Shown here piece after piece: positions 58,801 to 61,800 of a stretch of DNA of 64,000 bases; the first letter of the stretch is position 1, and each line of letters opens with the position of its first letter. This stretch comes from Escherichia coli (GTDB lineage: Bacteria; Pseudomonadota; Gammaproteobacteria; Enterobacterales; Enterobacteriaceae). The DNA lies in the NCBI RefSeq assembly GCF_009931435.1, contig NZ_CP043414.1, one strand, 5' to 3'. A program made the position numbers.

Positions 58801-61800
58801 GCCCTTCAGAGACGGACTCGGACGTAAAAAGGTGTTTTGCCATATTTAATATCACCTAAAGAGAATTTGGTTAGCTCAAACTGTTGTGTGGATTTTCTGT
58901 GGTAGCGGATCCTACCACGACTCTGCAGGTTAAAAACACTGGCAGTCTGAGTGTTAATCGGTATGGATGGATTAACATCTGGATGGCTATTTTAGGTCAG
59001 TTCTTCACCCAATTTCCACTTTTTTTTGAATCGTGTCTCATTCTGTTAAAAACGTGGCTGGAAATTTTTCCTGACAATGCTGGCATTCTGCGTATTTATC
59101 TTTTGCAATTTTCTGCCATTGTGGGGTATAAAACGCGGCGCGCGGCTTAAATAAAAAGCACACGACGTTTCTTTCGTGTTGCCACTTCCAGCCGGGTTGA
59201 AATCAGAGTTTTGGCTTGTGGGTTCGTCTTAACAGGCGGCCGTGGAGGTGATACGAAATAATGAACCGTTGTCTGCTGCTTAACCTGTCTCACCGTTCTG
59301 GTGAAGATTCGTTCCCCGCACTCTGCATCTCTGCTTTGCATACCTGCCGATGTTATACCCATCTCGGCGCTTCTCAGGATTCAAGAGCTGGTTACAGTTA
59401 CTGAGGACTGAACAAGGGCGCTCTTGTAAAAACAAGAGTTTTCTCGTGGTTTCGCCGAACTGTCACACTTACGTTCGGTTATGTGTTTAATAATGTTATG
59501 AAAAAGAAACCGGTTGCGCAGTCGGAGCGTCAGCATACTTTGCTGGAAAATCCGTGTGCTTATGGGTTGTTATCGCAGTCCCAGGCTGCGATAGTCGTTA
59601 ACTGTTTTACACTTAATAAAATAATTTGAGGTTCGCTATGTCTGACGACATGTCTATGAGTTTGCCTTCGTCAGCGGGCGAACACGGTGTACTACGCTCC
59701 ATGCAGGAGGTTGCAATGAGCTCCCAGGAAGCCAGCAAGATGCTGCGTACTTACAATATTGCCTGGTGGGGCAATAACTATTATGACGTTAACGAGCTGG
59801 GCCACATTAGCGTGTGCCCGGACCCGGACGTCCCGGAAGCTCGCGTCGATCTCGCGCAGTTAGTGAAAACTCGTGAAGCACAGGGTCAGCGTCTGCCTGC
59901 ACTGTTCTGTTTCCCACAGATCCTGCAGCACCGTTTGCGTTCCATTAACGCCGCGTTCAAACGTGCGCGGGAATCCTACGGCTATAACGGCGATTACTTC
60001 CTCGTTTATCCGATCAAAGTTAACCAGCACCGCCGCGTGATTGAATCCCTGATTCATTCGGGCGAACCGCTGGGCCTGGAAGCCGGTTCCAAAGCTGAGT
60101 TGATGGCGGTACTGGCGCATGCTGGCATGACCCGTAGCGTCATCGTGTGCAATGGTTATAAAGACCGCGAATATATCCGCCTGGCATTAATTGGCGAGAA
60201 GATGGGCCATAAGGTCTATCTGGTCATTGAGAAGATGTCAGAAATCGCCATTGTGCTGGATGAAGCAGAACGTCTGAATGTCGTTCCTCGTCTGGGCGTG
60301 CGCGCGCGTCTGGCGTCTCAAGGTTCTGGCAAATGGCAGTCTTCTGGCGGGGAAAAATCGAAGTTCGGCCTGGCGGCGACTCAGGTACTGCAACTGGTTG
60401 AAACCCTGCGTGAAGCCGGACGTCTCGACAGCCTGCAACTGCTGCACTTCCACCTCGGTTCGCAGATGGCGAATATTCGCGATATCGCCACGGGCGTTCG
60501 TGAATCCGCGCGTTTCTATGTGGAACTGCACAAGCTGGGCGTCAATATTCAGTGCTTTGATGTCGGCGGCGGTCTGGGTGTGGACTATGAAGGTACTCGT
60601 TCGCAGTCCGACTGTTCAGTGAATTACGGCCTCAATGAATACGCCAACAACATCATTTGGGCGATTGGCGATGCGTGTGAAGAAAATGGTCTGCCGCATC
60701 CGACAGTAATCACCGAATCAGGTCGTGCGGTGACTGCGCATCACACCGTGCTGGTGTCGAATATCATCGGCGTGGAACGTAACGAATACACGGTGCCGAC
60801 CGCGCCAGCAGAAGACGCACCGCGCGCGCTGCAAAGCATGTGGGAAACCTGGCAGGAGATGCACGAACCGGGAACTCGCCGTTCTCTGCGTGAGTGGTTA
60901 CATGACAGCCAGATGGACTTGCACGATATTCATATCGGCTATTCTTCGGGCACCTACAACCTGCAAGAACGCGCGTGGGCTGAGCAGCTTTATCTGAGCA
61001 TGTGTCATGAAGTGCAAAAGCAGCTGGATCCGCAAAACCGCGCACATCGCCCGATTATCGACGAATTGCAGGAACGTATGGCGGACAAAATGTACGTCAA
61101 CTTCTCGCTGTTCCAGTCGATGCCGGACGCATGGGGGATCGACCAGTTGTTCCCGGTTCTGCCGCTGGCAGGGCTGAATCAAGTTCCGGAGCGGCGCGCC
61201 GTGCTGCTGGATATTACCTGTGACTCTGACGGTGCCATCGACCACTATATCGATGGTGATGGTATTGCCACGACAATGCCTATGCCGGAGTACGATCCAG
61301 AGAATCCGCCGATGCTCGGTTTCTTTATGGTCGGCGCATATCAGGAGATCCTCGGCAACATGCACAACCTGTTTGGTGATACCGAAGCGGTTGATGTGTT
61401 CGTCTTCCCTGATGGTAGCGTAGAAGTGGAACTGTCTGACGAAGGCGATACCGTGGCGGACATGCTGCAATATGTACAGCTCGATCCGAAAACGCTGTTA
61501 ACCCAGTTCCGTGATCAAGTGAAGAAAACCGATCTTGATGCTGAACTGCAACAACAGTTCCTGGAAGAGTTCGAGGCAGGTTTGTACGGTTATACCTATC
61601 TTGAAGATGAATAATTAAGATTATTCCGCTATCGGGTCGATTTATTTACGTAAATCGGCCCGCTTTCTTTTTATATATTCTTAAAAATAATTTAGCTGCT
61701 TTCCTTATTGAATAATCTCCCTACAATCGCTGCATTAATTAAATGCAGAGGGAACGGTTATGAAAAAATGGAAAGTACGTAGCGCGTTGGTGGCATTAGT

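Follow-up and report, generated by a model that had tools for sequence, protein, structure and literature searches.

Genetic organization of the metK-speA interval

The region studied here separates the metK and speA genes of Escherichia coli, in a window of 64 kb (the whole stretch of DNA analysed, 64 000 nucleotides), and is a divergent control region. The minus strand carries metK, coding for methionine adenosyltransferase (57689..58843; recognized from the ORF list and from the RefSeq annotation of a 99.9%-identical strain and of K-12), and the plus strand carries speA, coding for the biosynthetic arginine decarboxylase (59638..61614; ORF list and annotation). Since the metK ATG is at 58843 and the speA ATG at 59638, the intergenic sequence spans 58844-59637; an earlier sequence-only reading of the same DNA had put the right bound correctly and the left one, at 58856, slightly too far inside. 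The region is found at an identity of at least 95% in 5425 out of 5426 complete E. coli genomes. The comparison set consisted of 75 genomes of Enterobacteriaceae and Erwiniaceae (65 plus 10 for the yqgB-speA layout); family membership and taxonomic spread were settled from Pfam, NCBIfam and 80 genomic loci taken together. Both flanking genes have a dN/dS of 0.01 (over 63 genomes in the case of metK), and the divergence of the leader is about 0.27 per site, as against 0.55 at the synonymous sites of these two genes. A search of Rfam over 58700-59800 returned zero families at E ≤ 1, the sole two Rfam matches being located downstream of metK and far under their gathering scores.

Three small ORFs had been proposed in the interval and all of them were found where they had been placed: they are the K-12 genes yqgD (b2941), yqgC (b2940) and yqgB (b2939). 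It had also been suggested that yqgB escaped the ORF track, which is plausible as a default cut-off of 60 aa drops both yqgB and yqgG. The latter, a fourth annotated ORF, had been overlooked; it is a translated gene lying on the strand opposite to yqgC. All four are annotated K-12 genes, with identities established in the literature, and were already known; in this respect the finding is an ordinary one, and the idea of yqgB as an upstream ORF (uORF) of speA is itself already in print. RefSeq annotates yqgD, yqgG and yqgB at this place in E. coli and K-12 adds yqgC. The view that both promoters, together with tightly packed transcription and translation signals, have to be accommodated within the interval proved right. 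The description of the interval as dense in small ORFs holds only weakly: there are 8 ORFs of at least 40 aa, versus 5.0 ± 1.7 in dinucleotide shuffles (p = 0.07), and 3% of the equal-size tiles across the window reach the same number. With a p-value that is not significant, ORF density was rejected as a signal by itself.

The metK side of the interval

The left third of the interval would be made up of the metK promoter, an array resembling a MetJ operator and the metK 5′ UTR. A candidate sigma-70-like promoter for metK (58989..59018, minus strand; TGGAAA, 18 nt, TAAAAT) came from a consensus scan, with a score of 9/12, and is part of a conserved block. Just downstream of its -10-like TAAAAT, and overlapping the putative start of the metK transcript, there are four tandem MetJ-box-like octamers, ATCGGTAT GGATGGAT TAACATCT GGATGGCT (58957..58988). 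A search for MetJ boxes had been recommended, and what it yields is this weak four-box array, with 18 matches out of 32 to the consensus (AGACGTCT)x4; its score is the best in the whole 64-kb window, and p = 0.04 when compared with shuffles. The array is held within 58944-59003, the block with the highest conservation in the interval, where identity is 84-95% among 65 genomes. It agrees with the published metK metboxes, which the passage of PMC3228920 dealing with metK reports in 119 of 122 Enterobacterales, metK being given there as a known MetJ target. Tandem 8-bp repeats of the AGACGTCT type at the putative metK transcript start are a feature shared with the MetJ-repressed promoters of the met regulon; unlike in those promoters, the match to the consensus is poor here. 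On these sequence grounds 58957-58988 would be operator-like, as a weak match.

yqgD and yqgC

The plus-strand ORF read as 58884-59150 has, as described, 88 aa when started from its TTG; the annotated start of yqgD is a GTG at 58899, which gives 83 aa (58899..59150). The minus-strand ORF, yqgC (59147..59362; annotated in K-12), encodes 71 aa, is antisense to the speA leader and to yqgG, and overlaps yqgD tail-to-tail by the 4 nt (59147-59150) noted earlier. yqgD overlies the metK promoter and operator as well as the speA promoter, and yqgC is unannotated in PGAP genomes.

One could regard both as real protein-coding genes, in a region whose two strands together would encode four or five small proteins. 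They figure in the K-12 annotation, and yqgD in essentially all RefSeq E. coli genomes; their ORFs are intact in Escherichia and Salmonella; yqgC matches Pfam PF17430 with 133.9 bits for a cut-off of 25; and an RNA-seq survey counts yqgG-yqgC among divergent overlapping transcript pairs. However, the data make this reading hardly credible. The dN/dS of yqgD is 1.02, its third codon positions are the least variable, codon periodicity is absent, and zero matches were found in Pfam and zero in NCBIfam. When fixed alignment columns are used, its start codon is retained in 14 of 62 genomes and its frame is free of internal stops in 6 of 62; by alignment criteria it is intact in none of the 62, stops or frameshifts occurring in most genera, and only about one-fifth of the genera keep the greater part of the frame open. 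As to yqgC, neither ribosome density nor a tagged protein could be detected (Weaver 2019), in-frame stops appear in most genera once one leaves Escherichia and Salmonella, codon periodicity is lacking as in yqgD, dN/dS is 0.82-0.90, and only 2 of 62 genomes have a yqgC that is intact on all four integrity criteria. The yqgC ATG is read on the strand opposite to CAT, the conserved codon for His34 in yqgG; both this start codon and the Pfam-matched part mirror conserved yqgG codons, and the Pfam YqgC family looks like an antisense shadow of yqgG. The expectation of a conserved frame failed for both ORFs, and that of translation for yqgC: yqgD is probably not protein-coding, yqgC is probably not translated, and the two look like chance ORFs, or annotation artefacts, over conserved non-coding or antisense sequence.

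The speA promoter and leader RNA

Conservation points to a promoter for the speA leader at 59103..59140 (plus strand), consisting of a -35 element TTGCAA (59103-59108), a -10 element TATAAA (59127-59132) and a discriminator rich in GC, with the 5′ end of the leader near 59140; the two hexamers and the segment 59124-59147 are near-invariant across genera. In the passages of Adams 2021 devoted to speA, yqgB and yqgG, the forward primer for the speA 5′ UTR fusion (GCGCGGCTTAAATAAAAAGC) begins at 59140, from which we infer that transcription starts near this position. The best reading is that of a leader of about 498 nt with two translated uORFs, and the same passages consider a yqgG-yqgB-speAB transcript probable. 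They further report, from rhoR66S reporter fusions and northern blots, that the speA leader is subject to Rho-dependent premature termination; a Rho score of 3.09 is given at the 3′ end, and a 3′ end situated 57 nt into speA is flagged ‘uORF’ (Adams 2021).

Several structures can be drawn along this leader. At its 5′ end, a stem-loop at 59158..59183 (plus strand) was detected by RNAalifold with compensatory changes, one pair being GC in 9 sequences and AU in 7; on the minus strand this hairpin gives a terminator-like match (59179-59160) followed by a T run. Single-sequence folding then predicts a long-range helix (59183..59250, plus strand) between an anti-SD element, CACUUCCA (59183-59190), and the Shine-Dalgarno (SD) sequence of yqgG, UGGAGGUG (59243-59250). 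Both arms are shared unchanged by 19-20 of 20 genera, and the part they enclose varies in length and carries covarying hairpins; with arms that are invariant and show zero covariation, the helix is a prediction from conservation and energy models only. A Term-seq 3′ end at K-12 position 3086295, reported in the same passages of Adams 2021, corresponds to 59254 of the window, just past this helix.

Between yqgG and yqgB, where a trp-type intrinsic attenuator would have its terminator, a conserved stem-loop resembling a terminator and followed by UUUUCU (59415..59449, plus strand; scan match at 59420-59439) also shows compensatory changes, one pair being UA in 16, CG in 8 and UG in 4 sequences. 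The stem of the 59420-59439 hairpin has only 3 G-C pairs, and no 3′ end at 59415-59449 is mentioned in the passages of Adams 2021 on speA, yqgB and yqgG. A trp-like antiterminator, formed by CAAGAGC (59382-59388) and GCUCUUG (59420-59426), was considered and rejected: the E. coli pairing is lost in other genera because its upstream arm lies in yqgG codons 41-43, which vary synonymously there. A second conserved hairpin, GCCGAAC ... GUUCGGU, is located upstream of yqgB (59454..59479, plus strand); one of its pairs occurs as AU, GU or GC.

yqgG, an uORF with a conserved C-terminus

yqgG (b4784; 59261..59404, plus strand) is annotated as a 47 aa ORF antisense to yqgC, and matches Pfam PF23505 over residues 1-47 of 47 with 129.9 bits (cut-off 27). 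Its translation is a published fact: it was identified by initiation-complex ribosome profiling and the SPA-tagged protein was detected (Weaver 2019). The ATG is retained in 61 of 64 genomes and the ORF has 43-55 aa in nearly all of them; about 60 genera share the ORF together with its C-terminal motif. Integrity scored from fixed alignment columns under-counted both yqgG and yqgB, their C-termini being shifted by indels, and these two ORFs were re-read from the aligned start codon. yqgG is a real, conserved uORF of the speA leader.

The dN/dS of yqgG is 0.48 overall and 0.19 for the C-terminus, where Arg42 and Ala43 are conserved in 100% of the cases and Gly44 in 95%. Arg42 is encoded by AGA, AGG, CGG or CGA and Ala43 by four codons; such synonymous codon turnover at D-S-R-A-G suggests, at the level of sequence comparison, that the C-terminal peptide and not the RNA alone is under selection. 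The ending of YqgG, ..SQDSRAG, recalls that of SecM, whose stalled form carries ..GIRAG on the tRNA of the P site (PMC10951299). In contrast to SecM, which needs a proline in the A site right after RAG (PMC10951299), the codon that follows RAG in YqgG is never one for proline in 64 genomes (it specifies Y, N, K, Q, R, T, M, H or L, or is a stop), and a SecM-type RAG/P arrest module was rejected for that reason. In the literature searched, there was no report of metabolite-dependent ribosome stalling on yqgG.

The ORF also stands out by its composition, being the only stretch of the leader with more C than G; its GC skew of -0.2 to -0.30 is a matter of composition alone and is not proof of Rho binding. 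yqgG would be a candidate sensor placed over the sole rut-like stretch of the leader.

yqgB, an uORF adjoining speA

yqgB (b2939; 59498..59629, plus strand) encodes 43 aa, and its stop codon (59627-59629) overlaps the speA SD. The translation proposed in the sequence-only reading was exact; the distance to the speA ATG is 8 nt instead of 9. The identification as yqgB is well founded, with 88.8 bits for NCBIfam NF033844 (small_YqgB; cut-off 35) and 105.2 bits for Pfam PF11036 (cut-off 24). That it is translated is known from the literature, its start codon being used in vitro (INRI-seq). All 65 genomes retain the ATG and an uninterrupted ORF, which insertions can lengthen to 60-90 aa. Even so, its stop is a TGA placed 8 nt ahead of the speA ATG (+8 nt) in 41 of the 65, and a TGA within ATGTCTGA, overlapping the speA start (-8 nt), in the other 24; this placement in 65/65 is less extreme than it appears, as two of the three frames end at either TGA anyway. 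In Erwiniaceae, yqgB is immediately upstream of speA in 10 genomes out of 10, with its stop at -8 nt. Sequence comparison indicates that the true signal lies in a frame that remains open when insertions occur, and yqgB is, like yqgG, a real conserved uORF of the speA leader.

Whether it is the YqgB protein that matters is a separate question. In Salmonella, deleting yqgB reduces arginine decarboxylase as well as the mRNAs of speA and speB. It could be that YqgB, and perhaps YqgG, is a trans-acting small protein that takes part in the acid stress response via protein-protein contacts, its adjacency to speA reflecting ordinary operon organization. YqgB does have curated families and a name of its own (acid stress response protein), and is listed among experimentally validated small proteins in the passages of Adams 2021 cited above; acid and colistin phenotypes follow from its deletion, in work that considers the protein a drug target; its overexpression induces heat-shock proteins, which implies that the peptide accumulates; and a few residues, such as Ala7, are kept through synonymous codons. 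We nevertheless judge this explanation to be rather unlikely. The dN/dS of yqgB is 0.70, a weak signal at the peptide level when set against 0.01 in the neighbouring genes, ORF lengths vary between 38 and 90 aa, and the C-terminus shifts frame in the 24 genomes mentioned above. The deletion study of 2026 nowhere uses the word ‘complement’ in its main text, which leaves room for a cis or polar effect on speA, and the reported phenotype disappears with arginine, putrescine or spermidine, as loss of speA expression would predict.

Moreover, the conserved islands of YqgB are the arms of an RNA hairpin found by folding (59565..59603, plus strand), which encode G-L-L-S and A-I-V-V-N, the loop being formed by the variable codons 27-30. 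When 41 distinct sequences were folded singly, nearly all gave this hairpin, with inner stems that differ and still pair, and in 31 of 35 cases the native middle is better by >1 kcal/mol than a shuffled middle. RNAalifold on a MAFFT alignment gave no covariation in this hairpin, which was revealed by per-genome folding with the shuffled-loop control. As the conserved islands and the stem arms coincide, the peptide itself may or may not matter.

The speA start region

The speA start comprises an SD, GAGG (59628-59631), the ATG at 59638 and, at 59632-59693, a stem in which the start is paired with speA codons 14-19 (59628..59693 as a whole, plus strand; from the sequence and its fold). The arms of the stem are invariant among 31 genomes, synonymous sites included, and its loop (speA codons 5-12) is variable; with zero covariation, the burial of the speA AUG in this stem is predicted from conservation and energy models only. 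The Rho-dependent 3′ end that the passages of Adams 2021 place at K-12 position 3085854 falls at 59695 of the window, at the base of the stem.

Given so many structures, one may ask if the leader is not purely a structured RNA, with sites for proteins, sRNAs, polyamines or RNases, on which translation of small ORFs is incidental and of no regulatory consequence. Several of its hairpins are indeed conserved, some of them with compensatory changes, much of yqgG codons 28-39 and much of yqgB are frozen at the nucleotide level, and both 3′ ends published in the passages of Adams 2021 are at the base of stable stems. Against this, YqgG residues 40-44 are kept by means of up to four synonymous codons each, which argues for selection on amino acids, the start codons of yqgG and yqgB are nearly universal, and the yqgB frame stays open despite insertions of 51 nt and about 140 nt. 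An explanation by RNA structure alone appears improbable.

A proposed model for the control of speA

On balance, we favour as probable, with real room for doubt, a divergent control region in which the speA leader contains two translated uORFs and yqgC and yqgD are artefacts; all the steps of the mechanism are ones that we infer. The conserved anti-SD helix would sequester the ribosome-binding site of yqgG. When yqgG is translated, ribosomes may mask the sole C-rich, G-poor, rut-like stretch of the leader, and the conserved C-terminal peptide of YqgG may modulate their transit or release. yqgB would then be translated up to the speA start, where the terminating ribosome could open the stem burying the AUG and hand over to speA by translational coupling; early speA would be translated in this way and shielded from Rho. 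Should uORF translation fail, Rho would terminate transcription early.

More tentatively, we propose as a possibility that yqgG encodes a nascent peptide responsive to a metabolite or to polyamines, which would govern how ribosomes occupy the rut-like part of the leader and, together with the anti-SD helix and the coupled yqgB, provide feedback control of arginine decarboxylase; in that case, the acid phenotype of yqgB would come from speA being affected in cis. If true, this would be the long-sought feedback mechanism of the biosynthetic arginine decarboxylase. The comparative data separate the translated yqgG and yqgB from the likely spurious yqgC and yqgD, and the model for the speA leader is concrete and testable. 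A word of caution is also in order about the YqgB protein, which has recently been used as a drug target: the phenotypes credited to it, that use included, may reflect effects in cis on speA expression.

Such a mechanism would have relatives in tnaC-tnaAB, speFL-speF and mdtU-mdtJI, where a translated short ORF is likewise present in a long 5′ leader, with Rho-dependent premature termination downstream of the uORF (Adams 2021) and a C-rich, G-poor stretch associated with it, which in the speA leader would be rut-like by its composition. There also, the conserved part of the peptide is the C-terminus, as in YqgG, and for speFL and mdtU the target belongs to the polyamine pathway, as does speA. 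The speA leader differs from these systems in that its rut-like stretch is inside yqgG and not just past its stop, in that a second uORF (yqgB) and about 230 nt are interposed between yqgG and speA, and in that the YqgG residues past RAG vary in number and identity.

A comparison can be made as well with translationally coupled gene pairs, where a stop and a start that overlap or are closely apposed allow a structured ribosome-binding site to be unmasked. As in these, yqgB ends 8 nt upstream of the speA ATG, or in overlap with it, in all the genomes compared, the speA SD overlaps the yqgB stop and the speA AUG is predicted to be paired. Unlike in such pairs, speA possesses an independent second start in frame, recognizable in the sequence at codon 27 (ATG at 59716-59718) behind a strong SD, AGGAGG (59705-59710; 59705..59718 in all, plus strand); an alternative start at this codon is reported in the INRI-seq paper, which cites earlier Ribo-RET work. 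Because of this independent start, only the long SpeA isoform would depend on yqgB.

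Organization and conservation of the metK-speA interval

The divergent genes metK (57689-58843, minus strand) and speA (ATG at 59638, plus strand) are separated by 794 bp, as read directly from the sequence between 58.8 and 59.7 kb of the window. Of the 5426 complete E. coli genomes searched by megablast, 5425 carry the region 58700-59800 at an identity of at least 95%, and the top match is 99.9% identical. Sequence check and annotation confirmed that the three small ORFs which a sequence-only reading had located here are yqgD (58899-59150, plus strand), yqgC (59147-59362, minus strand) and yqgB (59498-59629, plus strand). 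The 43-amino-acid translation quoted for yqgB is exact, and the two longer ORFs do overlap tail to tail by 4 nt; yqgB is indeed adjacent to speA, but its stop lies 8 nt from the speA ATG, not 9. A fourth ORF, yqgG (59261-59404, plus strand), had been overlooked: it is antisense to yqgC and is actually translated. RefSeq and K-12 both annotate yqgD, yqgG and yqgB, and yqgC is annotated in addition in K-12 MG1655. The observation was correct, all the ORFs were previously annotated, and the finding is known biology; its interpretation was partly right, namely as to the reality of yqgB and the close packing of signals. The density of small ORFs is only weakly above chance: the interval contains 8 ORFs of at least 40 amino acids, its dinucleotide shuffles 5.0 ± 1.7 (p = 0.07), and ORF density by itself is therefore no signal.

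In profile searches, YqgB, YqgG and YqgC scored well over the Pfam/NCBIfam cut-offs, YqgD had no Pfam or NCBIfam match, and no Rfam family was found within the metK-speA interval. Two weak, sub-threshold Rfam matches (BASRCI337 and naRNA4) lie downstream of metK in the galP-metK spacer (57555-57671), and probably correspond to a repetitive extragenic element, not an sRNA. Over 806 compared positions the sequence shows 11 differences from K-12, 6 of them in yqgB and none in yqgG; polymorphism within E. coli is concentrated in yqgB, with the amino-acid changes S9L, T14S and S28F.

Eighty loci from different species were fetched with the SpeA N-terminus as anchor, and in nearly all of them metK is divergent and upstream of speA, at a spacing of 633-1039 bp. 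Alignment of 65 Enterobacteriaceae intervals gave a mean divergence from the window sequence of ∼0.27 per site. In these genomes the synonymous sites of the flanking genes, speA and metK, diverge by ∼0.55 (dN/dS of 0.01 for both genes), and the comparison indicates nucleotide-level constraint across the whole interval. The best-conserved blocks are 58944-59003, 59124-59147, 59244-59263, 59344-59383, 59404-59423 and 59444-59463.

yqgC, yqgD and the underlying regulatory DNA

Lack of ribosome footprints and of conserved frames had been proposed as grounds for dismissing the ORFs, and this is largely what is found for yqgC and yqgD. The yqgC frame contains stops in most genera beyond Escherichia, Salmonella and some Citrobacter, is intact by every measure in just 2 of 62 genomes, and has a dN/dS of 0.82-0.90. 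Its ATG is complementary to a conserved yqgG codon, that of His34, which explains why the start appears conserved and probably also why a Pfam YqgC family exists. Weaver et al. 2019 identified yqgG by profiling ribosomes in stalled initiation complexes and could detect its tagged product; for yqgC the same experiment gave neither ribosome density nor detectable protein. In an RNA-seq survey, yqgG and yqgC are listed as a pair of overlapping divergent transcripts. The yqgD frame has stops or frameshifts in most genera, a dN/dS of 1.02, and third codon positions as its least variable sites.

Conservation of the DNA beneath yqgD is explained by the three regulatory elements within it: a metK promoter candidate from a promoter consensus scan (58989-59018, minus strand), a metbox-like array, and the speA promoter, recognized by its conservation (TTGCAA at 59103-59108 and TATAAA at 59127-59132, plus strand). 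The array, of four boxes at 58957-58988, answers the suggested search for MetJ boxes in part: it has the top score of the entire window, though with only 18/32 matches. Metboxes at metK are reported for 119 of 122 Enterobacterales (PMC3228920). An inverted repeat at 58952-58975 (GTTAATC, 10 nt, GATTAAC), in a near-invariant metK-leader block and overlapping the array, may be a site for a protein or may form a hairpin in the 5′ UTR of the metK RNA. Directly 3′ of the speA -10 hexamer, the GC-rich CGCGGCGCGCGGC (59133-59147) is near-invariant among genera; it resembles the GC-rich discriminator that follows the -10 in stringently controlled promoters. On the minus strand, the 5′ hairpin of the speA leader (59150-59179) reads as an intrinsic terminator with a T run, right where the yqgC ORF ends, and could halt antisense transcription ahead of the speA and metK promoters.

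yqgG

Of 64 genomes, 61 retain the yqgG ATG, and in nearly all the ORF encodes 43-55 amino acids. The N-terminal half of YqgG is variable and residues 28-44 are near-invariant (64 genomes). Codons 40-44 specify the same amino acids through many synonymous codons (Arg42, 100% kept, by AGA, AGG, CGG and CGA; Ala43, 100% kept, by four codons), which indicates selection on the amino acids. The dN/dS of the ORF as a whole is 0.48, and that of its C-terminal part 0.19. Codons 28-39 are frozen at the nucleotide level, and there an RNA-level constraint is likely besides peptide selection. After the RAG residues come 0-5 variable residues, then the stop. In Erwiniaceae there is a weaker YqgG-like ORF, with the pattern MNH..RHSG..D-x-x-AG-stop.

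The ORF is also the sole C-rich, G-poor part of the speA leader. In the predicted fold its Shine-Dalgarno (SD) sequence UGGAGGUG pairs with CACUUCCA, an invariant sequence further upstream; the stretch enclosed by the two is length-variable, with covarying hairpins. The spacing from SD (GGAGG) to ATG, within 59244-59263, is a long 12 nt and conserved. A distant SD is a hallmark of polyamine-stimulated mRNAs (the 'polyamine modulon'), a possible connection that we regard as a lead only.

Four loci carry natural variants: an insertion that replaces the C-terminal motif in two Citrobacter (L018 and L020; interval of 1039 bp), a frameshift in a Kluyvera (L044), and loss of the N-terminal part in an Enterobacter MAG (L041). 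They are potential natural knock-outs for comparisons of speA regulation.

yqgB and the speA start

All 65 genomes keep the yqgB ATG and an uninterrupted ORF. Its stop is either a TGA 8 nt 5′ of the speA ATG (41/65) or the TGA within ATGTCTGA (24/65), and these positions hold even with insertions that lengthen the ORF to 60 or 90 amino acids; in each of the 10 Erwiniaceae a YqgB-like ORF stops at the overlapping TGA. The stop codon and the speA SD (GAGG) overlap. Selection at the peptide level is weak (dN/dS of 0.70). An RNA hairpin at 59565-59603 has arms that encode the conserved islands G-L-L-S and A-I-V-V-N, and a loop formed by the variable codons 27-30. In individual folds this hairpin persists genome by genome, with inner stems that differ and still pair, and it folds better than the shuffled control in 31 of 35 cases. 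The start codon of yqgB was detected in vitro by INRI-seq.

A stem is predicted between the speA start region and codons 14-19 of the gene; its arms are invariant among 31 genomes, synonymous sites included, and its loop is variable. According to Adams et al. 2021, the speA leader shows Rho-dependent premature termination, yqgB-speA is among candidate uORF-regulated genes, and a yqgG-yqgB-speAB transcript was inferred. After conversion (K-12 coordinate = 3145549 minus window position), their supplementary tables place the start of the forward primer of the speA 5′ UTR fusion at 59140 and Term-seq 3′ ends at 59254 and 59695. The latter (Rho score 3.09, flagged 'uORF') falls at the base of the predicted start stem.

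A second in-frame speA start (59705-59718; ATG at 59716, codon 27) with a strong SD, AGGAGG, lies just 3′ of the stem and of this 3′ end; the INRI-seq paper notes this start as well. If coupling to yqgB operates, only the long SpeA isoform would need it.

A proposed two-uORF model of the speA leader

The most economical model, and in our opinion the most likely, is a leader with two uORFs. Its literature basis is uORF translation, Rho dependence and the effect of a yqgB deletion; our own analysis supplied the data on conservation, coupling geometry, hairpins and composition, and the causal links are inferred. The anti-SD helix would gate translation of yqgG, whose translating ribosomes would sit on the rut-like stretch, and the conserved C-terminal peptide may tune ribosome transit or release. 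Translation of yqgB would bring ribosomes to the speA start, opening the stem that hides the AUG, and early speA, kept translated, would be shielded from Rho. Loss of uORF translation would expose the RNA to Rho, and termination followed by trimming back to stable stems could yield the published 3′ ends.

The closest systems are tnaC, speFL and mdtU. What they have in common with the speA leader is that a leader ORF is translated, that Rho terminates transcription and that the C-terminal peptide is conserved; any stalling on yqgG, or ligand for it, is hypothetical. The RAG ending recalls the RAG/P module of SecM but is not followed by the proline which that module requires in the A site (PMC10951299), and membership was rejected. 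A trp-style antiterminator was likewise discarded, since the pairing is not conserved across genomes.

In Salmonella, Cai et al. 2026 observed that deletion of yqgB lowers speA and speB mRNA and arginine decarboxylase, and that arginine, putrescine or spermidine rescues the phenotype; the word 'complement' is absent from their main text. An arrest-peptide screen reported induction of heat-shock proteins by YqgB overexpression. Phenotypes attributed to the YqgB protein are possibly cis effects on speA.

Further downstream, the spacer from speA to speB holds an ORF of 243 amino acids (61760-62491, plus strand) whose product has a lipoprotein-like signal, MKKWKVRSALVALVVLLAGCSS. It is a hypothetical protein in the closest strain, K-12 has no annotation between these two genes, and it looks like a strain-variable insertion within the speAB operon.
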